DNA of 64,000 nt, taken from the NCBI GenBank assembly GCA_964019425.1, contig OZ025781.1:992001-1056000 (forward strand). Reading direction: 5' to 3'. This stretch comes from Flectonema sp. DT1601. Taxonomy: Eukaryota. This document shows positions 5,260 through 64,000 of this stretch, piece by piece. The notes below the pieces were generated by a model that was not told the DNA's origin, searched no databases, and saw nothing but the letters and a program-made list of their open reading frames with translations. How positions within the stretch are numbered: position 1 is the stretch's first letter; the number at the start of each line of letters is the position of its first letter. The position numbers and the translations under genes were made by a program.

Positions 5260-7750
5260 TTAGTGAATAACAAAAGCAATCCCAACAGCTATCACAACGA
5301 GGAGTATTACGATTATCACACTCAGAACGTAAACTGTTCTTCGACTCTGTGTAAGTTCCCGAAATGAATTCTTACACAGAGATGGTGATAACGGTTTCGT
5401 AGGGTTATCCCTAGGCAGGGTCACACGAGAAGGACTACGAGGCGACTTTGACATTCGAGTGCTAAAAGTACTTCCACTTGTCTTCTTTGACTGTATTGAA
5501 GAAGCAGGTCCTAAATATGCTGAAGGATTACTGTCAACTCTGCTAACGACCAGATCATCATTCAATTCAGTCATCGTACTTCTTATCCCGTACATGATAT
5601 CATTCTCTTCTGGATACCCTCCGAATATAGTCGATGCCTGCATACTACTTTGATAATCACTAACAACATCACTTACTTCAGGTTGTATATTTATAAGAGA
5701 CAAACAACTTCCGACTAAGTGTTTTTGAATCATGCTTCTCTCATCATCCATTGTAACATGTTCCACGACTGGGTGTTGACCTTGCTTTGAAGCAACTCGA
5801 CGGCTTGCCTGTGATTATTAATGTTATAAAGATGATTTATTATATGACATCAAGTGAAGCATATCGTAGCATACCTCAACACCTAATCCAGAACGTCTAC
5901 TGCTGGGAGTTGCTGAGATCCTTGAAGACATTGAGAGCTGTGTTGGTTTACTACATAAGAAAAAAGGAAAGCATTTTTATTAAATTGAAAATAAAAGAAC
6001 AATCGCATACCGTTCGTTCTTCACGTGATCTCCTTGGTTTTAGTTTAAAAGCATGACCAGGTTTAGAGTGACGAGAAGCTTTGCTATTGGGAGACGGCGT
6101 CGCACTTGCGAATACGTCCTCAGCAAGAACGTTATCTTCCAGTGCGAAAGAATGATTTGTGACAAAAGATTGAGGACAGGACTGTACTTCCATATCAGAT
6201 TCATTATCAGATTGTTCAGAAGGAGAGATAGAATCAATTTCTGTTGGCTGACACTTGGGTATGTTCCCAATGTTCTTTTGAAAAGTGAGTGGTGACCCAA
6301 CATTACCAGCTGACATTGCACTATTAGCACGAGGTCCTAAGTACAACACACCTGATGGATCAAAGCAGTCATGACCTCCAAGTGATGATTCGAAATCACA
6401 ATCTGTATCCGTTTCGTATTCATCCTCAGCTAGATATGAATCACTTATTAACTCAGCAGCTGTTCGTCTTAATCGAGGACACTTAACAAGACATAATTTC
6501 AAAAAGTTACCAGCTTCTGCAGAAGGAAGTGTTGGAAGAGAAGGAAGAGGATCATCACTTGCTAACACAGACATCAGCTGAAGACTATTTGTTGTTATGT
6601 GTGAGAATGGAGGCTGAGCTGTAAACATTTCAATCATCGTCGCTCCGAGTGACCAAACATCACATGGAAGCTGTCCAACTTTCTCTCTAATAACTTCGGG
6701 AGCCATCCAAGCTGGAGTACCAGTCATCTCTCCTGAAGTAGCTGACTTCAGCTCATCAAGAGTTGTTGCCGTACCAAAATCAGCGAGTTTGCATATACCG
6801 TGAACACTCACTAAGACATTCGCACCTTTCACATCTCTGTGAACCACACCATTATCATGCAGGTATTGAAGTGCACTTAGAATCTGACGAGTGTAATTCT
6901 TAACAGTCGCTTCTGATAGAGTTCCGAATTCTTTGATTAGAGATGCAATACTTCCACCAGGTACGAATTCCATGAATATATTAATCATTGCACCAACCCT
7001 CTCAGTACAGTAATAGGCTACAATATTATCGTGAGTCAGTTTCTTCATCATTCGAATTTCATGTTGTAAAGAAGTTAGTTTTCGAGCGACTGATGTATCC
7101 TTTAATGTGAATTCAATTGTTTTTACTGCCATCAGCTGACCAGTGTCTTGATTCAGTCCCAGACACACTTTACCCCATGCTCCTTGACCTAAGAACTTAC
7201 CTCGTTTCCATCGAAGTTTTGTAACTTCTTTTGTTTCCAGAGGATTCGATGGGGCTATTGGAGGTACCTTTCCGTGATTTGGTGATCCACAAAACGTACT
7301 CGGTTTTGGGGGAGGGCTGTTTTTGATTTGTTTCTTCTTCTTGTATAAACAAACAATTCTCAATAGAATTACACAACGGGTCATACCTTCCCAAATGATT
7401 TCTACGATTGGAACCGCTGCTGCTGCATCTTCTGTGTGTGAAGTCCGCAGATCCTATCGCTCTCGCGTTGTTGCGATACATCTCTGGGTTTGCTTTGGGA
7501 GATGATCTTTGTGATCTGTTTTAGTATTGAGTAGAAAGGTTTGTTCAAAGAATATATCAAAAGAAATAAACAAACTGCTGTCATACTTTACTTCTGGCAC
7601 AATACCGAAAGTGGTAGTCGTACCCTTGATGTGATTACAAGCATTACTAAAGCTTGTATTATGCGTAAAGCTTGATGCTTTTTCCAAAGTTCCATTGGTG
7701 GCAGCCCAATGCTCTTCGGAACACGGTATGCTTTTCCGCCGTTCGCCCAT
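5260..7750 (-). CDS. STE11/MAPKKK-family Ser/Thr kinase with C-terminal transmembrane anchor (5 exons)
   Basis: Motifs GQGAWG, MAVK, HRDVKGANVL, DFG, GTPAWMAPE. Frame-preserving GT-AG introns 7516-7586, 7317-7386, 5938-6010 and 5809-5874 join ORFs 7454..7750, 5951..7384 and 5260..5766. Protein ends VYVLSVIIVILLVVIAVGIAFVIH. Confidence 0.85.
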
Positions 7751-8028
7751 TTGCTGTGCGCCGCATTAATGAACCTGTTTGATAGAGAGCAATTAATATT
7801 TATGTATTGAAGGAATTGTTGCTGATTATGACACATAGTTAATCTGTTGTAACTGTAAGATAATAATTTATTATTAAAACAAAACAAGCAATAGCATTCG
7901 AAGGGGAAATTCCCAATCAAATTGGTTAAGACAGAAATAGAATTAATAACAAATGTTAACCTTTCAGCTGCATGGATTGTTAATCAGAATTAACTAAAGA
8001 TGACTAACGCTGTATATATTACATGGGC

Positions 8029-9613
8029 TCATCCATAGACAGCTCTGGCCTTTGGCGGACCCGACTTTGTAACAGAAGCGATTGTTTCTTTTTGCTTCTG
8101 CTTTTGCTCTGCAACTTCCGCGCGTTGTTCTTTTTTTTTCTTCTCAGTGAGTTGCTTTTCTTTGATTTCCTTATAAAGTGTTTCGAGAGGTTCGTTGTGT
8201 TTACGAACCTGACGTTGATGACTCGATTGTGGAATAACAAAAGAAGAGAGTTTGTGAGCAAGATATATAGCAAGATGATGAGGTAAGATTACTAGATTCT
8301 CTGAATGGTATCTGTCAGAGAAGTCTTTCTGAATTGGAAGGTTGAAACAAAGTCGAACTCCTAAACTGTTCTCCTTAAGAGATTTAACGCTTTCAGCATT
8401 GCGATGTCTTTTTGCCTTTTCAGTTTCATATAACTGAGTGTCTCTCCATCTTGATTCGTGTAGCTCAACCAACTGATCCGATATATGTAAATATTGAAAG
8501 ATATCCTCAACAGCAAGGAAATTAATAATCCCAAGTACCTGTGATGTGAATAGTCCATTTGATGGTTTTAAAGCTTCCGGACAATCACACAAAACATTTA
8601 ATGGATGTTTGAGGTGTTTCTTCCAATCAGAAAGAGACGCTGATGAATCCTGTATAATGTGATTACTTGCTGTTTTTGGTTGTGTTATAAACTGCTCAAA
8701 GTCAGTTCCAATGTCCTTCATTTCATCACAGCAGCTGCTTCCCTTTGCGAGTCCAAATACAAAGGGAGTAGTGGTGGTGTTATCTTTTAGTATCATTTCT
8801 ATAATTACTTTATCTGGTTTAACACCTGCATATGCTTCCCATAACATTTTAAATATATTTTGTCTTGCTCTCAGTTGTAATGTTATCGTACAATATTTAA
8901 CATTACTCATCCCAGTTGCGTGGAGGTAGAACCAACGAGCTCCATCCTTACTTAGGATGGGATCTTCACAATTCTCTTCTTGTAATTTTGGTTTTCCAAA
9001 ACCAACGTAATTAAAGTGTTCCTATTTTTTAATAATTTGACTTTTAAATTTTATCTTAAAAAAAAGTAACTATTGGTATATTTTTTTTTTAGAAAATAAA
9101 AAAACACACCATCAGATACTCAAACACTGTCGCTGCGTACATTTTCGCGATCTCTTCGTTTTGCTGTGAGCCGGTGTGCCTGTTTTTTTTTTATTAATGC
9201 CAATTCCGTTGTTTAGTAAGGGAGTGAAAGATAAATTGCAACCAGATAACAAACCATTGATAAGCAGCATATCCAACAATAATCAAACAAGGAATGCTCA
9301 GAATTATCCCTAAGACGTCTGTGGGTGGTGGAGGACGATTTTCCTTCTTTTTGGGTGTTGGAATTTCAGTAAAATCTTCTTCATCTCCATCCACTCCTTC
9401 ATCATCATCCTGAGTTGATCCGAATGGATTGTTGTCTTCATATTCTTCCTCCGTGTGATCTGTTCGTTCTACTGCTTCGCTGAAGAAATGATCGCTTTCT
9501 TCTTCATCATCGTCAATGTCTCCAAACTCATCGTCATCATCATCAGAACAAGAAGCTTGTTGGATAACCACAACAGCTAATAATAGAATTAATAAAACTT
9601 TTATTGAATTCAT
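8029..9613 (-). CDS. CCDC47: CCDC47 / DUF1682 ER membrane protein, PAT complex subunit (3 exons)
   Basis: Introns 9180-9254 and 9022-9109 join ORFs 9194..9613 and 8029..8910 in frame. Architecture is signal peptide, acidic lumenal segment, one TM, then WHTGSQQNEEIAK...EHFNYVG...FYLHATG...LQLRARQN...PFVFGL, then a basic coiled-coil tail. Confidence 0.8.
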
Positions 9614-9825
9614 ATTTTGTGTAGTCTGAATGGAGATAATATAAAAAACTGAGATTACGAACAGAAAATTTCGAAGTCAGTCAGATGGTTTGTACCAGCG
9701 GCAGCTGTAACACAATTCTAAATTACGACCGGTGGGACATCAATAAGCTAAAAAGAAAACAAGAGCTTTAAAAACTCTGTTGGTAGAGAAAAAACGTTCT
9801 CCATGAGACTGATGAGGTAAAATAA

Positions 9826-10569
9826 TCAATAATGACCCCCAATAGCTGCAAGCCGAAGATGTCCTCTGGCATCAGTACCGACTTTGTTTTGAAGAGTCTC
9901 GTCGCCTCCGTTATTCAATAACAATTCGTATATTTCATTTTTTCCTCCATTCCATGCTGCCCAAATTAGAGGTGTGTCACCATTTTTTGGAGACACGTGA
10001 TTAGGATCAGCACCCACTGAGAGTAACTGATTACATGCTTCAAAACGTTGATTTCTAGCAGCCCACATCAAAGGAGACCATCCCGACAAGGAAGAAAAAT
10101 CAACAGTTGCTTTTCTATCGAGGAGTAGCTCAAGGAGGGGGATGTCATTATTAGCAGCGGCCTCATGCAGAGCAGTTACTCTGTCGTTGTTCTCTCTTGT
10201 GTCGGTGTGGTCTACGTCAGTACCACAGTTTAAGTGAAGCTTAACTATGTCAATATTACCTGACTGAGCTGCTGTGATCATCTCATCACCGTGTCCTTCG
10301 TAGTTCAGATTCTTTAGTTCTTTAAAATAACGAAACTTATCATTGACGCTAATCATTACTTCTTCTTCTGCTACAATACCACAACTAACAAACAACTCAT
10401 CATCTGGTAGAACATCTCCTCCATAACTAAGTTGTTGATATCTAGCAGGAGCAACGTTATGAATATTGTGTGCAATTTGTTCCTTTACAATGAGAACCGT
10501 ATCATTTGGAGATATATCAATCACTTCTTTCCGACTGTCTTCGCATATTATTAATGTGATGGGGAGCAT
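9826..10569 (-). CDS. Ubiquitin-like + ankyrin repeat protein (247 aa)
   Basis: Ubl N-terminus (DISPNDTVLIVKEQI...QQLSYGGDVLPDD). Ankyrin motifs TALHEAA, SPLMWAA, TPLIWAA. Confidence 0.85.
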   Translation of the reverse strand: MLPITLIICEDSRKEVIDISPNDTVLIVKEQIAHNIHNVAPARYQQLSYGGDVLPDDELFVSCGIVAEEEVMISVNDKFRYFKELKNLNYEGHGDEMITAAQSGNIDIVKLHLNCGTDVDHTDTRENNDRVTALHEAAANNDIPLLELLLDRKATVDFSSLSGWSPLMWAARNQRFEACNQLLSVGADPNHVSPKNGDTPLIWAAWNGGKNEIYELLLNNGGDETLQNKVGTDARGHLRLAAIGGHY

Positions 10570-10871
10570 TCTCTCTGTGAAGCATAATTACAGCTTGGGG
10601 TTGCACAGCCTTCTCAGACTGAAAGGAAGTAATATATCTCATGCTCTGTCCTGTAAATATTAATTAAGGTTATTGTCTGTATAAACAGATTAAGAAAACA
10701 TTAAATAAAAATCCAAAACCATAAATAGGTTGCGAAGCGATTGATAAAAGGATCCCCTTTTAGACAGCTGACGGGATTGCTTCCTCATAAAGTGTAGCCA
10801 ATGCCACTCGCTGGTTTTTGTTTGCATAAATAACAGAGAGATGATGTCTCTACTTGCGACGGTGATTACTT

Positions 10872-12638
10872 TCATTCGAGAGCGGCGACAGCCTCTTGGC
10901 TATTAGAGGTAACTGTAGCTAAGATTGATAATATATTTTGAACTTCAGCCTCTTCAAAAGCAGAAGCTCTAAGCTGTAAGACCAGCCTAACAACATCACC
11001 AGTATCAACACCATGAGAACCACTATTGAGGGGGATCTCGAGCAGGTGTTGGAGCTCCTCCGCAATTTTTGGAGTCGAAGGAGTTGTCGCTAGCGATCGA
11101 ATAACTGCTATTACGTGCTGATCAGAAATTTTCATATTTGTGAATATCATTTTACGAAATAATAGTTTCGATACCCTAAATTGACCAGCTCTCGCACACA
11201 AATCAAATAACCTCACAAATGAACTCTCATTATAATTTCCTTTACGAGCACTATAATCATACGCAGCTAAACCTTTTCCAAGCAACTCAACAGGATGGTA
11301 ATTTGAGTTATCGATTGGCATCTCAATAAGAGCTTCGAGATACGTTTCGAGCGCAGCAATTGAAGGAACCTCTCTCGAATCTGTCATGAAATCCCAATAT
11401 CTGTCGAGGTGCTTAATCTGAGTGGTTTTATCTTCTTTACAGATTTTAAATAAATGACTAAAGGTTTCGATGTCGTTTTCGACAACTCGTTCCTTTAAGA
11501 TTGTGATAACTGCTTCAGCTTGTGTGTGTGTGTTTGATATCCTCAACGTGTTATTACACATTGCTAGTGTTGGTCTCTCATCACTTACTTCTAAGAATTC
11601 ATACAGGTGTTCAAATGCTTTGTCAGCAGTTCTACAGCAATTGATTAGCTTTGTGTAAGCAATTTCATTCTTTTCCGTTATAAAGTTAAATATTGAAAGA
11701 GCTTTTTCATAGTCTCTGTCTATCGCACAAGCATCCAACATGTGCTGACAACATCGAGCAGTTGGATATAACTTAAATTGATTGACAATCTCTTCCCATT
11801 CTTTCCAAGCAACGTCTGGTCTATTATTTTTAACTGCGGCTTCCAAAAGTCCCTCATACATTTGTGATGTTGTCGGAATAGATTTTTCCATAGCCTCAAA
11901 CTTTAGAGACAAAGCATCATCTAATTTTCCATACGCTCCACAAAGTCTTATTAGTTGTGAATAAGAGAATGATGATACGGTTGCTCGGTGACCTTGTTGG
12001 GACTCACGCATTTTTCGAAGAACTTCAAAAGCATCTTTATATAATGCAAGAGCACCATCCTTGTGCGGTGACACCAGTAGTTTTGCGAGAGAAAGACGAA
12101 AATAACGAAACAAATGACCACAACTGTAATCGTCTAGAACATGATGACGAGCATGCATCATTCCGAATAAAGTAACAGGAGGAGGAAGAGATTCAAGATC
12201 AGCATACTTTAAAAGTAATCCAAGATCTAAAGAACAAACATCACCATCTTGAACATGTTCATAGAACTTTATGGTCCCAACTCGCTGTAGTTCTTTTGAA
12301 ATTGTGTGTTCCATTGGCTTTGGGATACCTCCTCTGAATTCAAGATCAGTCGCGTAGTATCTCATTCTCATTCTCAGGTCTTGTTTTGTCTTTACTTCAA
12401 CAGATCTGTTTGTATTATTATACTCGACTATAGATTTATATCGAACCATTGATTCCAGATCCCATTCATTCCATTCAGCTGCTTGTCGTTTCTTTTCCAT
12501 CTCAGCAATCTGCGCCTTCGTTTTAAAAACAGAATGAATCGCTCCCTTTGTTTTTTGAAATCTCGTGTCTATCCGAAACTTTGACATCGTCCGTCGCTGC
12601 TGAACGAGGTTTCGGGGAGAGTTCATTATTGTAAACAT
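10872..12638 (-). CDS. Pentatricopeptide repeat (PPR) protein, probably mitochondrial
   Basis: PPR motifs YSQLIRLCGAYGKLDDAL, YEGLLEAAVKNNRPDVAW, QHMLDACAIDRDYEKAL. Start placed at 12638 (MFTIMNSPRNLVQQRRTMSK, transit-peptide-like), just after a TTATCTTACAG acceptor; the ORF track starts at 12683. Confidence 0.85.
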   Translation of the reverse strand: MFTIMNSPRNLVQQRRTMSKFRIDTRFQKTKGAIHSVFKTKAQIAEMEKKRQAAEWNEWDLESMVRYKSIVEYNNTNRSVEVKTKQDLRMRMRYYATDLEFRGGIPKPMEHTISKELQRVGTIKFYEHVQDGDVCSLDLGLLLKYADLESLPPPVTLFGMMHARHHVLDDYSCGHLFRYFRLSLAKLLVSPHKDGALALYKDAFEVLRKMRESQQGHRATVSSFSYSQLIRLCGAYGKLDDALSLKFEAMEKSIPTTSQMYEGLLEAAVKNNRPDVAWKEWEEIVNQFKLYPTARCCQHMLDACAIDRDYEKALSIFNFITEKNEIAYTKLINCCRTADKAFEHLYEFLEVSDERPTLAMCNNTLRISNTHTQAEAVITILKERVVENDIETFSHLFKICKEDKTTQIKHLDRYWDFMTDSREVPSIAALETYLEALIEMPIDNSNYHPVELLGKGLAAYDYSARKGNYNESSFVRLFDLCARAGQFRVSKLLFRKMIFTNMKISDQHVIAVIRSLATTPSTPKIAEELQHLLEIPLNSGSHGVDTGDVVRLVLQLRASAFEEAEVQNILSILATVTSNSQEAVAALE

Positions 12639-12683
12639 GATCTGTAAGATAATAAATAATATAACGATTCCCTTATCGGGCAT

Positions 12684-13840
12684 GGGGTTAAAATCAGTAA
12701 TAACTCATGTTAATATTTTTCCTTTAAAAAAAAAGAATTTTAAAATAAGAATATATCTAACGGCCCTGCAGTTAGTTCGCAATTAGCGTGGTAATTAAAA
12801 ATAATATTTGATATGGGCAGATTCCCTACAAAGTGTAACACCAATACAAAGACGATGTCCTTGGACAAGAATTAACTAAAAACCATTGCAGCAATTTCTG
12901 CACAAGGCGACAAAAAAGTCAATTAGACAAAACAGGAACAGAAACAAGTTAGTATATGAGATTATTTGAAAAAAAAAGAAAAAAAAATGCATTTAAGATA
13001 CTAAGATAAGTATGTTCTTGAGACTTTATTCTAAATTTATTATAAAATCAGTTTCAACAGTAATTCTTATCCAAAGAACTGATAATAACAAAACGGAACA
13101 TAAACAAGGTTGGGTTATTATGAATTTTGATAATTAAAACATAGATAGCTATCTAATCAAACGTTACTATATTATGAGTGCTCTACGAGGGTAATTCACA
13201 GTAACAGAAGACACAATCAGTAGCCGATTCCGAAGACCATTTAATTTAATTTATAAAAATATTAATGAACACGAATCTTCAGCTTTCCATCCTTTGCCTA
13301 CCTTATTAAACTATTGAGCTAATAAAAAAAATATAAAAATAAATAATGAAATAAATAATCAATTTTGAATTAAATTTATTGATACTCAATTCTGTAGAAG
13401 ACAGTAGGAGATAATACAATAAAAAAAAAAAATAAATAAAAAATGAAGAAAGGGGTTTATAATGTCAAGGAAATTTTACTTTCAACAAATATCAAAAGTA
13501 AAAAGGAAATTAATAATTCCGTTACTCCGATTAATAGGTCTGTCAGTCTTTCACAAATGTAAAACAAAAAATGCCTCACACACAAGGAAACACTCACAGC
13601 CATTAAAAAGGGAAGGTGGAAATGGTGTGTAAGTAATAAAAATAAAAAAAAACGAACGAAATTTCCATTCCATATAAAACCTTTCATTAAATAATTATTA
13701 ATATCCAAAGGGACTTACCGAAGGATTGAAGAAAGAGTACCACAAAACTTGGGCAATACGAATAACTATATCAAGAAACGGAATCAAAAGGAAGCTGAGG
13801 TGAGATAGTCAGTTTTGGTTCTTAGCCGTTACGGAACAAG
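12684..13840. repeat. Segmentally duplicated intergenic block (copies ~16910-18010 and, in part, ~32395-32731)
   Basis: Long near-identical stretches. Examples: GGGTTAAAATCAGTAATAACTCATG at ~12685 and ~16913; GGGACTTACCGAAGGATTGAAG at ~13709, ~17879 and ~32602. Confidence 0.9.
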
Positions 13841-14149
13841 TTATTTAGGCAAACTATCCTTTACTACACAAATAAGTTTCAAAAACGGGACGTTTATTCA
13901 AATCTAAAATAATAAAATCCCCAAACTTTACACGAGACGCGCAGCTATCTGTTGTGAAAGATGTGGTCTAATTATCCGTATTACCTCAAGGCTGACAGTC
14001 AAGATTGTCGGAGAAATTATTGTTCCTTTTGAGCTTCAGAATGCAGTATCAAATTATCCTCGACTTCCTATAACTGGACTGGTACTGTCGTCATGATTAA
14101 TGTCACAAATAACAAATGATCGATCCTCGATATGACAAACTCAAATATA

Positions 14150-16363: not shown

Positions 16364-16480
16364 TTTGATTTTTTAGTACATTTACAACTTTATAAAAGGA
16401 AATTATTTATCAAAATACATAACACAACTCAAAAAGGTGAATGAGTTTCAGACACTCCTGACGAATCAGCATATGTTTCA

Positions 16481-16575
16481 ACATTTTAAATATATTTTGT
16501 CTTGAAGTTGTAATATTTAACATTGCTCATCTCCCAGTTGCGTGGAGGTAGAACCAACGAGCTCAATCCTTACTT
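16481..16575 (-). pseudogene. Degraded fragment of CCDC47 exon 3
   Basis: Matches 8843-8955 (CCCAGTTGCGTGGAGGTAGAACCAACGAGCTC) with small internal deletions. Confidence 0.85.
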
Positions 16576-18610
16576 ACTCGAAAATTACTGATTTTGTCCC
16601 ATTTTACCGATTTTAACCCTTTCCTTATGTACTGAAGTTCCGTGCCGTTTCCACACCACAGCTGCTCATTAGACTCAGGAAGAGTACCTGACCCCGAAGA
16701 GTTTGTGAATGCAGTGCACAGATCAGCAAAGAAAACGACAGGTTTCTCACGCTCCAACGAAGGACGCCGGGTCTTGGATAAATAAATCAGGGTAAAGAAA
16801 AACTTACGTCTTGCTATTACTATGTAGAAGATCTGGAATCCTAAACTTCTCCAAAAATACAACGAGAAAAAGGGTTCAAAATCGGTAATTAACTTTCAGA
16901 CTGTAAGAAAAAGGGTTAAAATCAGTAATAACTCATGTTAATATTTTTTCCTTTAAAAAAAAAGAATTTTAAAATAAGAATATATCTAACGGCCCTGCAG
17001 TTAGTTCGCAATTAGCGCGGTAATTAAAAATAATATTTGATATGGGCAGATTCCCTACAAAGTGTAACACCAATACAAAGACGATGTCCTTGGACACAAA
17101 GTAAGACAAGAATTGACTTAGCGAACGCATTGCAGCAATTTCTGCACAAGGCGACAAAAAGTCAATAAAGATTAAAACAAAACCAGCAACAACAGAAACA
17201 AGTTAGTATATGAGATTATTTAAAAATAAGAAAGAAAGAAAAGAAAAAAATGCATTTAAGAAAATAAGATAAGTATGTTCTTGAGACTTTATTCTAAATT
17301 TATTATAAAATCAGTTTCAACAGTAATTCTTATCCAAAGAACTGATAATAACAAAACGGAACATAAACAAGGTTGGGTTATTATGAATTTTGATAATTAA
17401 AACATAGATAGCTATCTAATCAAACGTTACTATATTATGAGTGCTCTACGAGGGTAATTCACAGTAACAGAAGACACAATCCGCATTGATTGTTGAATTA
17501 GCTTCAACTGATGTAATTTAATTTATAAAAATAATAATGAACACTAATCTTCAGCTTTCCATCCTTGCCTACCTTATTAAACTATTTATGTGTGCGCAAA
17601 CCGAAAACAACCCAATAAAGTAAGGGTGTTAACGTTACCCTGCCACAATTCTATTTTCGCTCATGAAACATGTCTTCGAGATGAAAAAATAATAATAATA
17701 TTCCACTCTCCCCTAGCTGTCACAAATGTAAAACAAAAAATGCCTCACACACAAGGAAACACTCACAGCCATTAAAAAGGGAAGGTGGAAATGGTGTGTA
17801 AGTAATAAAAATAAAAAAAAACGAACGAAATTTCCATTCCATATAAAACCTTTCATTAAATAATTATTAATATCCAAAGGGACTTACCGAAGGATTGAAG
17901 AAAGAGTACCACAAAACTTGGGCAATACGAATAACTATATCAAGAAACGGAATCAAAAGGAAGTTGAAGTGAGATAGTCAGTTTTGGTTCTTAGCCGTTA
18001 CGGAACAAGGCCCAGCCTGACAAAACATCGAACTAGAATTTAAAAGGAAAATAAAACAACGAACACACGCTTGATTGACAACAGCCCACTCTAGACTCGA
18101 TCAGAGAAGGGTTATTTGAACGGAAGTATATCATAGCGTTGAGAGCAGGTTACAAGTAGATTACTACTAATTGCGAGAGCTTGTATTGTTTTGAAATTGA
18201 GCAAAGCTCATCTTGATGATCATTAATTAAGTCTTCTGTGTCACGAAAAGTCTGCTGTGGAGGGAAAGTAAAGCCTGGGTAGTCTACATAACGAATGTGT
18301 ATTAAAAATAAAAGAGAGTATTTAGGCAAACTATCCTTTACTACACAAATAAGTTTCAAAAACGGGCAAATCTAAAATAATAACATCTCCAAACTTTACA
18401 CGAGACTCAACGAGGCCTCAGCTAAAATTCTTTTTTTCCGAAAACCCAGGTTGGTTCTGAAACTATTTGTGTAGGAAAGGCCTCCCCTTACCCAAGTTAT
18501 TATTTCCGATGCGGTACTAAACTAAAGAAAACAACATTAAAGTCATCCCCTCGACTGACTATTTCACAAATAACAAATGATCGATCCTCGATATGACAAA
18601 CTCAAATATA

Positions 18611-21040: not shown

Positions 21041-21167
21041 TTGTTATGTTTAGTACATTTACAACTTTATAATAGAATTGAATTGAATTAGTTATCAAAA
21101 AAACACAACTTCCAAAAATAACATCTCCTAAAAAATCACCTTCGACCTTCGAACTTAAAGATTTTTC

Positions 21168-24468: not shown

Positions 24469-24561
24469 TGAAAGATTAGTTAGTATCATTAATTTTAGAA
24501 CAGAAAAGTGAGAATAAGAAAAGTAGAGATCAATAAAAGAAAAGTATTCATTTCTGCAGTT
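24469..24561 (+). repeat. 93-bp direct repeat flanking the PLE (second copy 26462-26554)
   Basis: Identical TGAAAGATTAGTTAG...TTTCTGCAGTT on both sides of the RT element. Confidence 0.95.
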
Positions 24562-38436: not shown

Positions 38437-38638
38437 AACTGTGGGAAAAAGAAAAAAAAATTGATAACTTTTTAGAAAAAGCAACGTGGAACCAAACTAT
38501 TGTGAAATACCATTATCACGTTGAAGACCAAGGAACCGAACCAAAATAATAAAATACTTTTTTTTTTTTTTTTTTTAAATTTGTGTTTTGCCACTAGGAA
38601 TGTGCAAACAACAATAACAATAACAACAATAAAACAGA

Positions 38639-38670
<32 letters not shown>

Positions 38671-45477: not shown

Positions 45478-46096
45478 CTTACTTGTGATAAGAGAGATCT
45501 GTTTTTTATGAAATAGAGTTAGAGAGAAGTAACAAAAACAATGAAGAAACAGAATCAGAGATGTAACCTCTCACCCCAGTACATCACACACAGAAACCCT
45601 GATGAAAAGAATAATAATAAAACATTAGTAATATAAAGAACAGCATTAACATAAAAAGAAATTGATGGCAAACTAACCACATGACTTGAATAAGAAAAGA
45701 GGGAACGGGGCACACATCCGATCCACGATAGGTGTTTCGGAGGTTGCGGGTTTTTTTTTTTTTTTTTTTCGACATCCACTGCAATATAAAATCACCTTCA
45801 AGGGAACACACAGTAACAATGTGTTGTCATCCATGCAGAAAGAAAACCCAATTGGTAAAGTCACACGCAAACACAGACTCTCGAATTCACTTTATTTTTT
45901 CCTTCTAGCATCGTGGGTGGGTTGGAAGGGACGGGTACATATTGGGCATTTTAACAAAGCTAATGCAAGGCTACAAAGAAGCGATCGTTCAGACACCATT
46001 CTGATGTCTTAATTGGGAAGCAATTGAAAACGACCACAACAATTACGGTTTCCCTTTTGAACATTGAAATCAATCAGATGTCACAGACGAAGAGGT

Positions 46097-47124: not shown

Positions 47125-47156
<32 letters not shown>

Positions 47157-52163: not shown

Positions 52164-53462
52164 TTATGTTACTAACAGACTCTGGTATAGTAAATGTAAT
52201 AATAAATGTTAAGTATTTTTAAAATCCTCCTCTTTTTTTTTATTAAAACTCCTAATGACGAGAATGGGTTGGAAGAGGGATTTGAGATAATTTCTTTTTC
52301 TTTTATGTTTTATAATTTTTTTTTTAGCAGTCTGGTTACCTAGGTTAGGAGGCTGTACTATATAATCTATTCGTTTACTTTGTTATAAGTTGTTATTATT
52401 ATTTACTTCTCCTTTTTTTTTTTTTTTTTTTTTCTTTTTTGTATTCAAACAGGTCACTAAAAACGGCAGCATAAGTGTTACTAAGTGCCTTCTTTTTTTT
52501 TTTTTTTTTTTTTTTTCCCTCCCAATCCCGGAACTGCAATCGTCATCCAAAAAAAAAAAAAATTGAAAAATAATAACAAAAGGAAGACAGTACCACTGCA
52601 ATGCGGGAATGGCGGTTTTTTTTTGATAAATCAATCCAAAAAAAGTGGGATTGTTATTATATCATCAGTAGCCTTTCGAAGTTTCTAATTATTAATCATC
52701 CCGGGATATATGTGAGAAAAAAGAAAAAGGAAAAATCTCCAAGGGGGGTAGGGATTTAAAAAATCAAAAAAAAAAAAAAAAAAAAAAAAAAACCGCTTCA
52801 CTCTTTATGTGCCTTAAATAATAAGGCTCTCAGAAATTGGTGAGAAGCTTAACTTAACAAATATGACAATCGTAACTACCATTTGTCAACCCATTCTCTC
52901 AATCCAATTTACTGAGCTAAACAACTTACTATTTAACAATACACGGGCAAGTAGACAGATTGAAAAAAAAAAGAAAAAAAAAGAGACGAAGCAAGAAACG
53001 TACAGCGACAACAAAAAAACACAATATACAAACACACGCGACCCGTATGGAAAAAGAAAGCCGATCTACAAGGAAATAAAGATTCCCGCAAGGGCAATAA
53101 TAATTCCCACATTTACTCTGCTACGGTTCGGTAACAGGGTCTTCCAGCGATTCGACTCATGATTCTTTCGAAGGAGAAAGCCAAGGAGGTTATTATACTC
53201 CACAGACTTGTGAATTCTTATGGAAGGAGAGTAAGGAAGTCAGAAGTTCCGAAACGCACACAAGACTACTAAAAACCTTTAAACAGGTTGTTAAAGAATT
53301 GCAAAGAAGACCGTACCCGAAAAATTGAAAAGTTGTGAAAACCAACATAACATGTAGATATGGTTATCAACAAACAATGAGCGAATTAGGTAGGAGTACA
53401 ATGCACTCCTCTCAGTCATCAACTCAGAATAGTAATTTCTAACAAATTGATATCTCGTAATC

Positions 53463-54173
<711 letters not shown>

Positions 54174-55724
54174 TTAGTAGTTTTCGTCTCTGAAGATTAA
54201 AAAAAAATAAAAAACTAATTTTTTTTTAAAAAAAAAAAAAAAAAAATCCTAAACCTAAGCTATGTCCCACAATAGTGTGAAAAATTTTTAAACTTTCGTA
54301 TATAAAAGCCATTTAGGTAAAACATGAAGAGGAGAAACGAAAAACAGATTCTCAACTAATTAATGTCTGATACGCCAAATATGACGACCTATACCTAAAA
54401 ACACGAACCTATGCAGCAGACCTTCCTTTGTAAGTTAACATAACATAAGAATCGTGTGGTTAAAACAATTATCATGAGCTTTCAAAAAGTTTTTGTTGAG
54501 GACTTTTTATTTCTTTATTAAGTATTAAATATATCTACGTGGACAAACAACATGGTGTACCACTTTTTTTTTTTTTTTTTTTTTAATCACAATTTTGTCA
54601 TGAGTTTGGAAGGATGCGGCAGCAGACTGTATTCTGTTGGAATATCCATGACATGTGTGTTTTTTTTTTTTTTAAAAAACAAAACAAAAAAAAAAAAAAA
54701 AAAAAATAGATGGGGAAATTATAATTGAAGCAAATGGGAAAAAAAAAGTGAAAGTCTTTTTTTTTTATTTTTTATTAATTATTCTTATTTTGCGTCTATT
54801 TTCTTAAAATGTTTTTTTTTTTTTTTTTTTTTTTTCTTGAAAAGGGGAATGTATAATAATAATCTCAAAAAAAGAACAACAAAAAAAGGCATCTATTACG
54901 CAGTAAGAGTAAATTGACTCGAACCTGTTTGGAATTAAAAAAAACACCAAAAAACAACAACAAAGGCAACACTATTGGTGTGTGTTGATTCCTCATTTGG
55001 TTGTCGCTAAGATTCTCAGCGTGTGAATGAGGAGCGCATGTATTTAAAAAAGATGGTCGTTGTTTATTTTAAGTATCGTAAAAATGAAAGAGAATATAAG
55101 GAGTAGCACACATAAATCTCCTTTAGCTTTATCAGTTTAAGTCGATTCACCGTTTTGTGCGCAAACAAAACATCAACAAGGTTATATAACTATTTCCTGT
55201 GCAGGTTAAGTTTAAGCCCATTATCTATTTTTTTCTTTTTTTTTTTTTTTTTTTTTGTTCAGTTTTTTTGCTGCCGAAAAGCAAGATCCTATCTGTGAGT
55301 TAATGTGAGACTGCATTCTTAAAGCTCAGGGAGGGACAGGTATTTCGGAAAGTTGATATTCGCCGAAACAGAAAACTGGTTCTGCTAGTCTTTCTGACTT
55401 TCTCCCACCACTGTAACAATACAGCTTCTTCATATCAAGCAACAAAACAAAATCGAATAATAAAAATAATAAAACAAAATACGAGAAAGCATTTGGTTGA
55501 AGTAAATAAGTTAAAAGGCTACCCAATTCGGGAATTCCTTAACCGGATCTACGGAGTGGGTGGACAGGTGCTTTTGACAGACTTGTTGTGAATGAGTATT
55601 ACGAGACCACGTGTCTCGCAATATAAAGTAATTAATCTCTAAAGTTTTTTAGTATTTCATTCAAACTGCAGTAACCGTTTTTTTTTTTAATCTGAAGACT
55701 GACAATGGAATAATTGCAGCTACT

Positions 55725-58700
55725 TCACGACACGCAACACGCGCATTGACTGTTGGCATCTTTCGAAGCAAACTTAACGCCAGCAGAGTTTGGATTCTTT
55801 TTCACGGATGATTTGTTTCCAGATTTTTTTGTTCCATTCATGCCGTTATTATTCTGACTAACTTCAGCCTTGCGTAGCTCACGACGAAGGTCTTCAGCAC
55901 GAGCCTCATATGATGGATCGTGTTGAGATTCAGGCCAAAGACTTGATAGAGGAGTAGCATCAAGATTTCTACGAGTATAAAATAATAAATAAGCCTTTGA
56001 TGTTTGAATGTCTGACTCTTGTAGTGGGAGTAGTTGAGAATCGTTGAGGTGAAGCCAACGACCAGATTCTCTAACAAAACAATCATAATGACCCCAAGTT
56101 GTTCTCGCACCCTCATGATTAACTACTGCCGTTAGGTCATAAATAGTATCAGATCTCGATAGTTGTGGAGCATACTTCAATAAGTTATCGTCATCACCAA
56201 CTATTTCAGACATCACTTCTTTAAAGTCAAGTCCTGTTATGGGAAACTCAACTGGTGTTTGAACTTTTTGACCTCCATTCTCAGCACTCCAGGTAAACCT
56301 TTTCAACTGAATAACTAAGACTGGTGGTAATGCCCATGCTGCAACAGATTGACTGTGAATGGTTAGACCTTTGCATGGCTTACACTCAATTGGTGTTTCA
56401 AGTAAGGTGTTCTTCTCAAAGTATGTTGAGATACAGCTGCGTAATTGTAATTGTTGTTCACTAACACGATCTTCAGTACACTCTGATACAGTGCAATGAT
56501 CAATCGGTTGTAAAGTAATATAATCAGTTTCTAGTACAGCAGGATCCCAATCTATACCAATAGTGTCTCGGTGTTGGACGTTGTGAGCCTTTTGATCATT
56601 TTCAATTTTGCAGCCGATACATCCACGAAGCCAACCACAATCACTGCATGTCATTCCGTCAATCGTAACTCTAGTGAGAACAAATGGATAGTTTCCTTCT
56701 TTTATTTCATCTTTAGAGTATCCTCCAACTAGCTGGTTCATATGTTCCCAAACTGCTTCATAAAGTTGTTTTCCCGTCCCTTCAGTTGTACATAACAGTG
56801 AAGGGTATCCGAGTAACTGTGGTTTCCAAGGTGCTGCGAATAGCTTATCCTCTCTACTTAGTCGTCGTTGAACCATCTGAGCGAGAATTTTAGTACCTTC
56901 GACTTGATGGTAGCCAGCGGCTTCGAATACGTGAATTCTTTCATCTCTCATTGCTGATACTTTCTGAGCTACGTTATCTTTAGCCTTCCAAATAGGAAGT
57001 TCAAAACAGGAACCACTCGGAGCTAACTCCATTGTTATCATGTTGCTTGCTATTATTGGATGTCCGATATCAATCTTTGATGCGACTTCCTGAACCAGTT
57101 GAATTGTTGTTGCCGATAGCGGTAGTTTTACTGTCAAGTTCAATACCCTGTCTGATAGCCTGTGAAATGCAACATTCACATAATGGTAATCAGTTGCTGG
57201 CAGAGCTAAACTCAGAGTTGGAACTACCGTTTCAATAGATCGAGACTGTCTTCGGCAGACTGTGCAGACTCTCGTTGTTTTATGTTGCCAAGCAAATAGT
57301 GCGGTAAAAAATGATTTTACCCATTTTGTGTGTAATCTCCAAGCTTCTTCTGCAAGTACCTGGTCACTTTTTTTTGCTGTTTCTGCGGAGTCCCTACGTT
57401 CTCTCCTCTCACTGGGTTGGCCAGCAATATTTAAATCGTCATTAAGTATTTCCAACAAGGCTAACAAGAAGTCCTGTTGTGGTTGTGTTGGTTGTTAATT
57501 CGAATCATCTAAACAGAGAACAGAAATAATAATAATAATAAAATGTCTAACACACATTAGCATCCTGCTGGTGATTAGTTGAGAATTCAGACCTGCAATT
57601 TCCAATAAGAGATCTGAAGTTACGTGGAGCCAGGTACTTTTTATCGCAGGTCCAGAGCTTTTCAAGCTGTTGTTATTATTGAGTTTTTTTATTTATTTTA
57701 TCAAAAAAATTGAAGACTAATAAAACAAATTGAAAATAGCAAATCATACCAACTCAGACAGTGACATGGTGATTTTACCACCGCTGGATGTGTCATGTTT
57801 TGCAGAGCGATTCAAATCAGAGAGAAACCTTCCCGACATGAGGTAATCTCGTATAGGTTTTGTGTGACTGAATACTTGAACTATAGAGTTCATGTAGCAG
57901 GTGTTTGTTAGGTTTTGCAGACCTACTCGTCCGAGAGAGACTGGATCTTCTTTACCTGATATTATTCTGAGTATCGATTTTTTTGGAATTGTTATCGCTG
58001 TACTATTATGATAAGGAAGCACCTTTACTGTTTGACGTTGAGCTGATAAAACTGTCGCTTTAACTTTTCGTGAAGTAGAATCCGACATATGGCATTCAAC
58101 ACGAATCCCACAGGTTAAATTTTCTAAATCAGCAGCTAGTAATGAAATCGTATCATTCGTATCTGACGGAATGACCGTATCAACTCCGCAGAGTTCAAGC
58201 AGCTTATGCAAATCTCCAACTAATTCCTGTGCCACATCACCACTAGCTATTAGCTTAACGACATAAGTTGAATTAAATTTAATAATATGAGTTCCTGAGT
58301 TAGTCCTAAGAATATCAGCGCTATTTACGATGGTTGAAACACCGTCGACTCTGAGAAGGGCTCCAGTTGGTAGGTTGATAGTCAGGGAACACTTGCCATC
58401 AGTACTCTCGAATAATATAACTTTAACATCCTCAACTGGACAAATTATAAATTGATTCCCATCAGCGATGTCAGCTTCGAGTAAGGTTCTTGATAAATCA
58501 GTTATTCGTTGCCATCGAGTACTTCTACCCAAACCAGTAAGTGATTTTTCCCAAAGAACTGCATCTTTTTCATCTAATCCATAAAGAGTAGATGCCTCTC
58601 TGACTATCATATTTAGAGTATTCAACGCACTAAATGCCATCTCAGATGATGGAACAGACGACGACTCAAGCCGAGCAGTTGGTACATTTGAGTTATCGTT

Positions 58701-60398
58701 GAAAGGAGACCCTTGTAAGACTTTTATACATGGAGGGTGTAGCTCTAACTCACTGTGATCACATATCTCTATCACTGTTCGAGCTATCGCCGAGTGTGAT
58801 CCTCCATACCAACTGGCGATAGCTTTCCATGCTGAAGGACTGATTACTTCAAAAGCATTTGCTCCTTCAGAATTTGTTGCTTTTTGTGGAGATGTTAGTT
58901 CAGAATCTAAAAGACCAGCCCAATTAATATTCCTATGAAGATAACCATAACCATCTAAGAGACGTTGACTTGTTAATTGTGGTAATGTTCTAGTTCCAAC
59001 CCAAGTTTCAGTACCTCTGTCTCCGTTTGGTGAGACAGCAGAGCGTGGTTCCAAAGAGACGATTGATTGCCTCCATTCACTCCACCATTTTTGATCAATC
59101 AAGTACCAAACAGTACCTGCTGGACCTGTGTAGTCAGTCGGATGATATTGAGGAGAATTGAGAAGTGATATTACTGATTCCTCTTCATCTCTGTCAGGAC
59201 GGATACGAAGATCTAACGAAACGACAGTCCATAAGACGGATAAAAACTCAGCAGCAATCGGCTCACGTACTGACTTTGATACTTGACTTATACCAATCAT
59301 AGTACTGCAATCTGTGTGTTCAATTATCCTCGTAGCTTCTTCTGGAACTTCGACTTCAGTCTTCACACCGTTAGCTTCGTTTATTAGTCTTTGTGGAGTT
59401 AGTAATACATTTATCATTTCCTCAAACTCTTTTTGATCCAGTTCGAATCCTGCCTCATCCAATTTTTTTTCTGATTTAATTTTACCAAACATTTTCAAAC
59501 AGAATAATAGCTTCTCGTGTTGGGTTCCTTCAGAACAGAGAGCGACTGCGTTAAGAAGTTCAGTGCGAGAGAGAGAACCAGTTTGGGAAGTATCGACAGC
59601 GTGGAATAGTCTTTCCTTGATGTCTGAAGAGATAGAAGGGAGAGAGTCGCAGAAGGCTTTCTTATCAAGAAGTCCATTAGTTGAGCTTGATTGCATTCCA
59701 TTAAATGATTCTGTGAGATCAGATACTTTACTGTCAGAGAGTCCTGTTTGAAGAACAAGAGATCCTTGAGTTGGGAAATATGAATCAGTCAGAAGGTCAT
59801 GATGATGTGATCGAATTCCTTTTCTTTGAAGTAAATCTTCAAACTCATACACCCAAACAATAACATCGACGTTAGCATCAGCATTACCAACCTGCTTTGA
59901 AACCCATTCAGTAAACTGTGGAAATGTAAAATGAGTTTGCTTTGATGAATTACCAGAAGCAGACAACAATGTCTCCGCTCGTTTAATCTCCGCTTTGAGT
60001 TCTCTCGTTAGAACTGAGTCAGCAGCACTGATAGTGGCGTAGTGAAGGATATCTTCTTTACTAAGATGACCAGTTCGTGATCGATCATAAGCGTTGAATA
60101 TTAATCTCATGCGTTCCTCTGCAGTACCTAAACGAAGAATAGCTAATCCACATATAAATGAATCCAAATCAATAGCTCCAGTGTTGTGAGTATCGAATGC
60201 TCTGAATAGTGCCTTAGCTAACTCTTCAGGTACTTTAGGTAACACAGATCCCATAAACTTTTTTTTGAATGTTTCAAAAGCCATTCTCTCACTTCCACTA
60301 CCACCCGACGCAACGATTCTGGTGTAGTCATCAACGACTTCTGGAAGCATCTTACCAAGACGCTCCTGGGCGTCATCTGCTGAGATAATTCGCGTCAT
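55725..60398 (-). CDS. USP32: USP32-like deubiquitinase (EF-hands, DUSP, Ubl, USP catalytic domain, CAAX-like end; 3 exons)
   Basis: EF-hands; DUSP (WYLIDQKWWSEW); GLQNLTNTCYMNS; QQDA; LKRF; His box GHY; ends CCVS. In-frame introns 57667-57749 and 57474-57555. Confidence 0.88.
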
Positions 60399-60982
60399 CT
60401 TTTTGTTTTATATCATTAGAAAGTTGATAATAAGAGAGGGGGAAAGATCTGATAAAGGAATATAAAGTAAAAGCCAGTGCAGACAAACAACACGAAAGAT
60501 ACAACAACTGAACACTATCTGGTATTGATGTGTCATTGTGTAGTAGATTACACCTGTTTAGATACGAGACGTACCAACGTACTATAAGTAAGCATCACAG
60601 AGACAAATCACTTCCTGCTGCTGTACTTTAGGCAACAAATTAATTTTGAATTTGACTTCACATTCATGTCAAAACGCTCACCGACGACACAGAGAAGTCT
60701 GCCAGTGAGGATATAACAGCGAGAGAAATAAAAAACCAAAAAAAAAACGATAATATTGTTTGGAAAAGAACAAGACGGCGTAACCAGCTGATTTTACAGA
60801 ACAATCTGACAATGCGGACTTGTCCACCTGAAAAGGTGGACAAGGATGATTTAATTTCAAATAGACTACTCTGTCTCTCTATTGTATTCATGAGTCTCAA
60901 AGATTGGTATCTGACTAACGAACAGGTAGCTGAATGGGTAATCAGATTTACTTCAACAGACAGGTAAAGAATTTCTGATTTA

Positions 60983-61303
60983 TCATATTTTTGATTTTTG
61001 AAGAAATCCTTTAAAGAATTGCGCTGGTAAACTGTCCATCACACAAGGATGATGTTGTGTAAGAAACTGCTCCGTCGCATCACCTCCAGCGTTGTTGAAT
61101 ATCACATCATCTCCTCCAACGTGTTGGTTCATAAATTGAGAAACATCATAAACTTTACCTTCAACGATAATCCAGCAGTCATCACGTTTATTGTGAAGGG
61201 ATACTTCCGATTTAGTTATCTTCTTCTTACGTAGGGTCGATACAGCACCAGATCTTCCTTCAGAATTTGCCTCGTCAATCATAAATGCGTATGCATTTGA
61301 CAT
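60983..61303 (-). CDS. Soluble cytochrome b5-domain protein (106 aa)
   Basis: HNKRDDCWIIVEGKVYDVS, HVGG (HPGG variant), GDATEQF...H. No TM tail. Confidence 0.9.
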   Translation of the reverse strand: MSNAYAFMIDEANSEGRSGAVSTLRKKKITKSEVSLHNKRDDCWIIVEGKVYDVSQFMNQHVGGDDVIFNNAGGDATEQFLTQHHPCVMDSLPAQFFKGFLQKSKI

Positions 61304-61602
61304 TTTATTAATAATAGTTCTGTTTATGTGTTGTTATAAAGAGAGGAAGGTATTGACTCGTATCTCTCACGCATTCAATTCATTGCTACTGTTGTTTGAG
61401 AATACATTTATAGAAATATCTGTAAAAAGATTATTGCAATCAACAAAACAGATGTTTTGATCAGAATAAAGTAATGCTTTGGCCTTGAAAGATGTGTTTC
61501 GCTACGATAGAACACAATAAGAAGTACTCATTCAGTACAATTACAGGTACGAAAGTTGCATTGGGTTTTAACCACTACCAGAAAACGTTAGAACGCTACC
61601 TC

Positions 61603-62423
61603 TCACTCATCATAGTCGCCCTTGGGTTTCCTTTTCAGGTATTCATCATTCTCATACCATTCCTCATAAAAAGTAAATCTAAACATCCGAGGTTTAGGAC
61701 CCTCATCTGGAGGCTCACCATCCAATAGTATATCAGGACTGTTGAAAGGTGGGTAACCAGAGCCGTTTATAAGCAATCCTTGTCCGTAATCTGTACCAAA
61801 CCAAAAATTAAAACCTGGAATATAATAAAAGGGATGAAATCTATCTTTCATATCTTCAATGTTCACACCAGCTTCAGGATCAAGCTGTTTTATGATTATT
61901 ATTTTGTTTGATTCGAAAAAAAAAAATATTAAAAAAAAAAAAAAAAAAAAGAAAGAAAGAATAAGGTACGTACCGTAAAATAATATGCCACGGAAAGACC
62001 AAATAAAATAGATAAGCTGTTTGATACTCCACGAGCAGCTCTTGATCGGAAAGTTCGATGTCGTTTCGGTGCTCGAATATCCTGCATTAGACCTTGCCAA
62101 CGATGGTCTTTGTTGATAGGAGAGAGTAACGAACTTCCATAAATACCGTACTCGACAGTTCTACGAGCGAGTTCTGCTTTAGGTAATTGGTCTCTCAAAG
62201 TCTTTCTTCGAGAGCTTCGTTCCGGAACGAAGACTTCCCTCATGTGCTTTTGATACATGTCATACTTTTCAGTAATATGCGCATGTGCTGTTTCTGGATT
62301 TACAGTAAGTGGTGGTTTCGTAGTTGGAATCGCTTCGGTTATCTCTTTTGAACTTTCATTGCAGTACCTTCTCTGCGTTCGAATACCCACCGCGGTGATT
62401 CGTGAGATGACCCCGCTTCTCAT
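61603..62423 (-). CDS. Hypothetical single-TM protein with mitochondrial-type presequence (2 exons)
   Basis: Intron 61885-61973 joins ORFs 61929..62423 and 61603..62100 in frame. N-terminus MRSGVISRITAVGIRTQRRYC. Confidence 0.7.
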
Positions 62424-63085
62424 ATTTTGAAACCTGCTTTAGGAATTTAAAACTTAAATTATTAAACAAGACCTAAATCGTAAAAATTATTTTTTGCCCT
62501 GAACTGAAAATCAAGCATCAATCTAACAAGTAGCCAAAGTCTGACTAAATAGAGGCCACGTTTTAGTTGACAAGAGATCATAAAATAACAAATCAGGCTC
62601 AAGAGAGATAAGAAGAATATCAGCAAAAACAGCAGCTGTAAAGTCCGAATGATTGCTTTTAAAGAGGAACGATTTTTTTTTTTTTTTTCTTTCTTCAAAA
62701 CACAACTAAAATAATAAACGAGAGTCCCATTGCGAGATCCTCATCAACGTGACTGGCGGGTTTTTTCTTTTTTTTTTCCCGAACGAACGTTAACAGTAAG
62801 TTTTATCACGTTTAAAATCTTAAGAACGAATAATGAAAATGAAAACATCATCAGCAGCGATAAGGACAAGAAGAATATCAGCAAACAGTAGCTGTAAAGA
62901 CTGCTATTTGTGATGAGGACACGGTCTCTTTTTTCTAAACACAACTAAAATTAAGAAAGTAGCTACCCATACTTCCTGATAACAAGAGTACGAACAACAC
63001 CATTCACACAGTACGCAGACTACTTATTCTTAAAACAGATTAGAGAGCTCCCGAATGCCAATTTTCTTGGCACAACAGATAGTCT

Positions 63086-64000
63086 TCACGAAGGCGCATC
63101 TAAGTTAGAAAGTATTTTCTGACAAGTACTTCCCATTGACGGATGATGTCGGGATGCAAATTCAACAAACGCGATTCCCTTGTTATGTCGAATAAGACGA
63201 GCAGCAGAGAAGTGAGATGACAAGTTAGCTAACGCAGTGAGCCCAGGAGATACAATTACTGAAGATACCTTCAATTCCCACAAAGCATCAATAATGTATT
63301 GCACGGCGTTGTAATCACTGCAAAGTTGTTTATTGACTTCAGACTCCGATAGAACTGATAACAATATTAAGAGCTGCTTGTGAAGTTCAAAACAGGGTCG
63401 TTTGTTTTCCGAATTCGTCAGATTTTGTTTCCCAACCAAAACAATAACAGGGATACAGCTTCCTAACTTGTCAACGTTGCAAACTGCAGCGAGGCTGTTT
63501 TTTTTTTTTTTTTCTTCTTCTTCTTTTGATAACTCTACCACGAAAACTCAATAACAAAGTAACAGAAAGAGAGAGACATACCTGACTAAAACTTTTGTAG
63601 TATCAGTGATGGTTGGAAACAGTCGGAGAGAACGTGCGATACCCTCGAGAAATTTGAGCTCCAGAAGCTCACACATTGCTGAAGGGATGACAGATATTTG
63701 GAGTATCAACTCCATTACTTTTATATGAACAGATTGTTGTGTATTACGACGAAGAACTTCTTTAATAGAGGAATACCCTCCATAATCTGATATTATTGAT
63801 GGGTCAGGTGTGAGGAGGAGTGCGAGTGCTGCAAGACAGGTTTCCGCTACTTCTGATGAGGATGGATAATATCGAAGAGCAGCGAATAGACTTGTGACAC
63901 ATCCAACAGCTATCAAGTCAGGTACTCTACTCTCGTCTTTTGCAAGTTCCCAAATTAACTTTGAGCTGGTTGTAAATACAAATTCTGTTACGCTATCTGT
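63086..64000 (-). CDS. Armadillo/HEAT-repeat protein, 3' part (5' end beyond window)
   Basis: ARM-like helices (VAETCLAALALL, GLTALANLS). In-frame intron 63495-63581. Confidence 0.7.

Follow-up and report, generated by a model that had tools for sequence, protein, structure and literature searches.

Diplonemids are intron-rich, transcribe their genes in unidirectional polycistronic clusters and carry a spliced leader on essentially all mRNAs (Valach 2023, PMC10161547). Introns of the Diplonemidae have GTATG donors and CAG acceptors (Thakur 2025, PMC12621601). Diplonema japonicum has a full U2 spliceosome with U2AF present, its introns are classed as canonical, and A is the commonest base in the tract before the acceptor; L. 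lanifica and R. humris have a weak A in the tract (PMC12621601). Here we describe 11 cis introns in a 64-kb stretch of the Flectonema sp. DT1601 genome (contig OZ025781.1, positions 992,001 to 1,056,000; "the window"), and compare their acceptors with the AGs that precede start codons, where the leader might be joined.

The window introns resemble the canonical introns of D. japonicum in their GT-AG ends, the (G)GTATG donor, the CAG acceptor and the use of A in place of pyrimidines before the AG, and also in having at most a weak branch motif, CA-rich motifs and no pairing of the ends (PMC12621601). They are 66-89 nt long, as against a median of 41 nt in D. japonicum and 74 nt in R. humris (PMC12621601). 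A U-rich 5' half and a comparison of cis with trans acceptors are not described in the available main text of that account. We found no published cis/trans acceptor comparison for any diplonemid in the literature; the supplements of Valach 2023 and Thakur 2025 may hold such logos. Among kinetoplastids, the tract of Trypanosoma brucei starts a median of 43 nt before the trans acceptor (Kolev 2010, PMC2936537), and the cis introns have a GTATG donor and tracts without a fixed position (Kostygov 2024, PMC11613528). Both recall the window in GTATG, in a variable and often long distance between tract and AG, and in the lack of a fixed branch motif. Kinetoplastids differ in having about three cis introns in all, for which the accessible part of PMC11613528 does not describe an A-rich 3' end. 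With so few cis introns, the problem of sorting cis from trans acceptors hardly arises there.

All statistics are drawn from this one window, that is, from its 11 introns and 18 independent genes; the evidence comprises the window sequence, homologous proteins and published papers. The introns, GT-AG in each case, are all on the minus strand, with 5809 and 63581 as the outermost boundaries.

Intron 1: 63495..63581, minus strand, 87 nt, GTATG...A15-CAG; the gene is 5'-partial and matches no Pfam family; placed by frame and consensus only.
Intron 2: 61885..61973, minus strand, 89 nt, GTACG...TAAAACAG; in a 243-aa gene; placed by frame and consensus only.
Intron 3: 57667..57749, minus strand, 83 nt, GTATG...AACAACAG; in a ubiquitin protease (USP) gene; fixed, gap-free, by proteins of Flectonema neradi (P0001) and Sulcionema specki (P0002).
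Intron 4: 57474..57555, minus strand, 82 nt, GTGTG...CACAACAG; USP; fixed by P0001 and P0002; skips a pyrimidine-rich TAG at 57509.
Intron 5: 53559..53624, minus strand, 66 nt, GTATG...TAAAACAG; in a Rab GTPase gene; fixed by alignment of Rab loci.
Intron 6: 9180..9254, minus strand, 75 nt, GTTTG...A10-CAG; in CCDC47; fixed by F. neradi P0179.
Intron 7: 9022..9109, minus strand, 88 nt, GTGTG...AAAAATAG; CCDC47; fixed by P0179; skips an A-rich TAG at 9070.
Intron 8: 7516..7586, minus strand, 71 nt, GTATG...TAAAACAG; in a protein kinase gene; frame and consensus.
Intron 9: 7317..7386, minus strand, 70 nt, GTATG...AAAAACAG; protein kinase; frame and consensus.
Intron 10: 5938..6010, minus strand, 73 nt, GTATG...CAACACAG; kinase; exact sites by frame and consensus; skips a pyrimidine-rich TAG at 5951.
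Intron 11: 5809..5874, minus strand, 66 nt, GTATG...AATCACAG; kinase; exact sites by frame and consensus.

The donor is GTATG in seven introns, GTGTG in two, and GTTTG and GTACG in one each. Removing the introns restores open frames, and the length is a multiple of three in just 4 of the 11; seven are in phase 0, four in phase 2 and none in phase 1. Five are codon-exact through gap-free alignment to homologues. At the two USP introns tblastn alignments break, and the spliced protein aligns without gaps to both P0001 and P0002. The spliced CCDC47 protein is likewise gap-free against P0179, and five alternative site pairs each open gaps of 4-18 residues. With intron 5 removed, the Rab protein aligns gap-free to the four closest Rab loci (L001-L004) and gains a C-terminal Cys. 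Homologues also join the kinase exon and the last exon into one protein, which bears on introns 10 and 11. Each junction offers 2-21 frame-keeping GT..AG pairs. For all seven GTATG donors, intron 1 included, the A-rich CAG is the first frame-keeping AG, and the A-rich end is therefore not needed for site choice once the donor has been picked. An alternative donor for intron 2, at 61969, was ruled out because an early stop results. A donor/acceptor matrix scan of the window flagged 124 of 3829 AGs and yielded no further convincing coding intron.

The 3' ends of these introns are rich in A. At positions -20..-4, the A fraction is 0.65, compared with 0.28 at 460 non-coding YAGs (p = 1.4e-7) and 0.31 at 857 coding YAGs (p = 4.5e-8). 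A outnumbers T there in 11 of 11 acceptors, and the enrichment holds in the five homology-fixed introns alone (p = 2e-4). Pyrimidines make up just 0.33 of these positions; a tract adjacent to the AG, common but not universal in U2-type introns, is not found. Position -4 is A in every intron, and ten end in ACAG. Over -9..-4, A reaches 0.76 and G 0.00, and G accounts for 0-2% of the last 15 nt.

The 5' parts have the opposite bias. T lies at 0.44-0.59 upstream of -34 and is higher in the 5' half than in the 3' half of 10 of the 11 introns. At +6..+40 it stands at 0.53, compared with 0.37 in 671 non-coding 35-mers, and over the 30 nt past GTATG at 0.50 (seven donors), compared with 0.24 for 24 coding GTATGs (p = 2e-4). 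The longest pyrimidine tract has a median length of 21 nt and ends a median of 43 nt before the intron 3' end. The resulting U-to-A polarity is 0.51, as against 0.04 in 649 non-coding GT..YAG pseudo-introns of the same length (p = 4e-5). Intron composition, the first half of the observation, is thus solid. The original prediction, made from the letters of the window, had listed 11 frame-preserving introns of 66-89 nt with these donors, acceptors lacking a polypyrimidine tract, A-rich 3' ends and mostly U-rich 5' halves. All the introns were recovered, the acceptor sequences it quoted are present, and both compositional claims are borne out.

Short fungal introns have their tract near the 5' end, between donor and branch site (PMC5677156, citing Kupfer 2004). 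They share with the window the tract in the 5' part and the logic of intron definition; they differ in keeping a recognisable branch motif, none having been detected in the window introns, and in having no spliced leader (PMC5677156). We think it somewhat probable (roughly 55%) that the window introns are ordinary U2-type introns, each recognised over its whole short length, with the U tract displaced upstream, an unpaired A-rich spacer and an ACAG end. GT...AG ends in 11 of 11 and the lineage donor GTATG in 7 of 11 agree with a U2-type assignment. What is observed of this arrangement is the boundaries (set by homologous proteins in five introns), the GTATG donor, the shift from U to A, the near-zero G and the lack of excess pairing. 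GTATG would be bound by U1 and the tract in the 5' half by a U-binding factor, presumably U2AF65 or a TIA-1/Nam8-like protein. For the branch, a loosely specified A within the A-rich part would serve, and the 3' site would be an ACAG no closer to the donor than some minimum. The choice of cis joining over leader joining would be set mainly by the presence of a donor 66-89 nt upstream. Cis and trans acceptors would then share a CAG core, with the nearness of the U tract to the AG differing in degree and acting as a secondary bias.

The U-to-A bias of the introns could instead be a functionless by-product, arising through shared descent from a single mobile element whose tail was A-rich, or through local mutation bias and homopolymer slippage. 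The window is indeed full of poly-A and poly-T runs and retroelements, pure A runs end two introns, and the two highest intron-pair similarities have z of 3.8 and 3.3. However, the same-length pseudo-introns from non-coding DNA lack the polarity, and other Diplonemidae are reported to have the same A bias (PMC12621601), which makes a by-product improbable. In the form of an introner or transposon-derived family we reject it, as there is no shared sequence (mean similarity z 0.25 across 55 intron pairs) and no target-site duplication (repeats at the 11 boundaries are 3 nt or less).

It had also been proposed that the U-rich 5' and A-rich 3' halves may pair with each other to define short introns, and the analysis does not support this. 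We folded the 11 introns at 25 °C against 150 shuffles each. Ensemble energies equalled those of the shuffles (mean z -0.05 for full shuffles, 0.03 for shuffles within halves and 0.11 for dinucleotide shuffles). Native pairs of 5' and 3' halves came to -81.0 kcal/mol and swapped pairs to -80.9 kcal/mol (P = 0.48). The terminal 9-mers had 4.45 nt paired in native and swapped combinations alike, and the last 10-20 nt were unpaired in most minimum-energy structures. Long AU stems do appear in the folds of introns 3 and 8, and cross-half pairs are slightly more numerous than in fully shuffled introns (mean z 0.5, Stouffer 1.66), but composition alone makes some AU stems form. A hairpin that joins the intron ends, as in the non-conventional introns of euglenids and hemistasiids, is very unlikely on these figures. 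The introns do not fit that euglenozoan non-conventional class, having GT-AG ends in 11 of 11 and no stable end pairing.

The second half of the observation concerns AGs just upstream of start codons. For this comparison we used 18 of 20 genes, after dropping two near-identical glycosyltransferase-61 (GT61) paralogues and masking retroelement and pseudogene open reading frames (ORFs). Under a fixed rule that took the nearest YAG upstream of each ATG as the putative trans site, the A fraction was 0.31, compared with 0.65 at cis acceptors (p = 2e-4), and A exceeded T in 6 of 18 genes. The pyrimidine fraction at the same sites was 0.59 and that of the non-coding background 0.53 (p = 0.22). Pyrimidine-rich CAGs are nonetheless enriched, being present within 60 nt of the ATG in 7/18 genes as against 9% of background windows (P = 0.002) and within 130 nt in 9/18 as against 20% (P = 0.001-0.002 over 60-130 nt). 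A-rich CAGs within 130 nt are enriched as well (8/18 genes compared with 13%, P = 0.008), and of all NNAGs upstream of start codons ACAG shows the strongest enrichment (18 compared with 7.2 expected, P = 0.0005 by window resampling). Seven of 18 start-upstream ACAGs match or exceed the weakest cis acceptor in A-richness. Donors upstream of the A-rich CAGs were no better than those upstream of pyrimidine-rich ones (12 and 13 sites, p = 0.38), and a role for the former as acceptors of introns in the 5' untranslated region (5' UTR) is not supported overall. CTRAY precedes 5/18 candidate trans sites, with 18% in the background, and gives no signal. Since several window sizes and motifs were tried on this small set, P values near 0.01 are soft.

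The individual sites discussed are the following.

Candidate trans-splice acceptor of the Rab gene: 54190..54209, minus strand, pyrimidine 0.82, TCAG, 34 nt before the ATG.
Candidate trans-splice acceptor of a Cys-rich gene: 38439..38458, minus strand, pyrimidine 0.94, ACAG, 2 nt before the ATG.
Candidate acceptor of a PPR gene: 12642..12661, minus strand, TTATCTTACAG; located before the second rather than the first in-frame ATG.
Ambiguous 5' region: 45499..45618, minus strand, with a pyrimidine-rich CAG at 45599, GTGTGT at 45591 and an A-rich CAG at 45499.
A-rich ACAG, a candidate counter-example: 61320..61339, minus strand, 16 nt before a cytochrome b5 ATG; the upstream donor is weak.

The first three are the pyrimidine-rich AGs on which the predicted contrast was built. 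They exist, but the one at 12642 falls within the longest ORF, 41 nt in, the first in-frame ATG being at 12683, and pyrimidine-richness does not extend to the nearest YAGs as a class. The broader claim, that cis acceptors differ from pre-start AGs, stands for their A content and for the enrichment of pyrimidine-rich CAGs; the parallel enrichment of ACAG and A-rich CAGs goes against it. As judged from the sequence, the contrast between cis and putative trans acceptors is only half shown. The A-rich upstream AG that the prediction had conceded near 45500 was found, as the CAG at 45499. Its region is ambiguous: this A-rich CAG may end a 93-nt intron in the 5' UTR, or it may be a trans acceptor; the order 45599, 45591, 45499 reads well as a candidate trans site, donor and A-rich cis site.

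These data bear on a second account, which overlaps partly with the one we prefer. One spliceosome would use two acceptor codes, in which an A-rich end marks a cis site and shields it from the leader, and a pyrimidine tract adjoining the AG designates a site of leader addition; thousands of introns in polycistronic, fully trans-spliced transcripts would thus be spared from being cut up. In keeping with this, A exceeds T in 11/11 cis acceptors as against 6/18 nearest YAGs, pyrimidine-rich CAGs cluster before ATGs at both distances given above, and the 45599/45591/45499 series can be read as a U-rich trans site, a donor and an A-rich cis site. Tract purines and AC at -4/-3 are also said, in work by Siegel in 2005, to lower trans-splicing in T. 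brucei reporters. However, the nearest YAGs do not differ from the non-coding background, A-rich CAGs are enriched before ATGs without better donors, and an ACAG terminus occurs in two of the three predicted trans examples. Pyrimidine-rich TAGs are passed over at 57509 in the homology-fixed intron 4 and at 5951 in intron 10, as two codes would have it, but they lie 47 and 60 nt from their donors, and the A-rich TAG at 9070 in intron 7, 40 nt from its donor, is skipped too. All the skipped TAGs are nearer the donor than the 66-nt minimum seen, and distance may therefore explain the skipping.

Trans acceptors of Schistosoma mansoni are U-richer and have longer tracts (PMC5832876), the same direction in a milder form. 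In Ciona, donor strength tracks the choice between cis and trans, weak donors favouring trans-splicing (PMC11155486). Themes that the window may share with these animals are the U-richer trans acceptors with longer tracts, competition between the U1 and leader small nuclear ribonucleoproteins, and donor strength. There the difference is one of degree among pyrimidine-rich acceptors, whereas in the window the cis acceptors are A-rich and the trans sites are candidates. Overall, we regard two separate codes as a possible but rather doubtful account.

Several points count against ordinary U2-type introns with a displaced tract. Six of the 11 introns (four in the kinase, one in an ARM-like gene and one in a mitochondrial-type gene) are placed by frame and consensus alone. 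The switch from U to A is not at a set distance from either end (standard deviation 13-14 nt both ways). No branch motif above shuffles was found in the 11 introns, where CTRAY occurs in 0/11 and YTRAY in 8/11 as against 5.6 in shuffles (P = 0.11). A small number of genes accounts for the excess of ACAG upstream of start codons (9/18 genes compared with 33% in the background, P = 0.11). Those ACAGs are also much less A-rich on average than the cis ones (0.33 compared with 0.62, p = 2e-4), which a sharper cis/trans code would fit as well.

Other features were noted near start codons. The 15 nt before the 18 start codons are 46% A, compared with 28% in non-coding DNA. At 12954-12898 on the minus strand, 214 nt upstream of the start codon of the PPR gene, TACTAAC is followed by a long pyrimidine tract and CAG, and the duplicate at 17208-17142 (minus strand) has the same arrangement; this textbook-looking 3' site resembles no cis acceptor among the 11. 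The stretch 16945-17481 repeats parts of the sequence upstream of the PPR gene. GT61 is present as three near-identical paralogues (35118-33169, 21043-18611 and 16372-14150, minus strand) that vary in an array of an 18-nt (DNTTQA) repeat. They have no YAG close to the ATG; TTATAAAG is common to all three, 24-28 nt upstream, and may be an AAG acceptor, after which comes a very short upstream ORF. Immediately upstream of GT61 copy b lies a broken ammonium-transporter fragment (21760-21168, minus strand; Pfam Ammonium_transp), and just upstream of copy c a degenerate CCDC47 fragment (16577-16479, minus strand; tblastn, 49% identity).

Every long ORF of the window is on the minus strand, the same one-strand layout as in euglenozoan polycistronic clusters. 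The USP gene (60398-55725, minus strand; EF-hand/DUSP/UCH) encodes a protein with 78% identity to that of F. neradi and 44% to that of Sulcionema specki. CCDC47 has 62-64% identity to the F. neradi protein, and the kinase, which has a C-terminal membrane anchor, 56-59% to D. japonicum protein P0032. These identities place the source within the Diplonemidae and make a species other than D. japonicum likely. An alignment of USP against the metagenome gave no relative among 113 stretches, and a search with the kinase C-terminal region matched solely the window's own ORF. The metagenome scan for Rab returned 80 loci with identities of 73% or less, among which no diplonemid-like locus was seen; 8 of the 80 were aligned, and their use was limited to fixing the Rab junction. 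An Rfam search of the window gave 0 matches and no small nuclear RNA gene. Two tandem, near-identical membrane-protein genes (46924-46097 and 45570-44704, minus strand) have no Pfam match and unrelated 5' regions; from their look we take them to be amastin-like.

An ATG-less, retroelement-like ORF with endonuclease, reverse transcriptase and RNase H domains (Pfam) occupies 30537-26875 on the minus strand. A second, different ATG-less ORF (26472-25219, minus strand) looks reverse transcriptase-like by eye and has no Pfam match. The motif TACTAACTAATCTTT (30547-30527 and 26478-26462, minus strand) directly precedes both, possibly reflecting an insertion-site preference. Six of the ten sense-strand TACTAAC motifs lie within 23.9-30.6 kb; the positions 24485, 24294, 23959 and 23936 were noted as well. 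Upstream of the retroelement, 32317-30910 holds about three tandem copies of a non-coding unit of about 550 nt with poly-T runs.

The A-rich acceptor tract described here is real, but it has already been published for a related diplonemid (PMC12621601); the U-to-A polarity, seen here in another species, adds modestly to that record. What lets a spliceosome tell cis acceptors from those that receive the spliced leader is an open question, to which the usual answer is that trans sites have no donor upstream. Diplonemids meet this problem at scale, because they are intron-rich and polycistronic and trans-splice essentially all their mRNAs (PMC10161547). A species with purine-rich cis acceptors offers an unusually sharp contrast for studying it. 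If cis and trans acceptors prove alike, Flectonema sp. DT1601 would just extend an already published diplonemid trait to another species. An A-rich tract beside the AG also bears on what U2AF binds, and annotation of this genome would go wrong with gene finders whose training relied on pyrimidine-tract acceptors.

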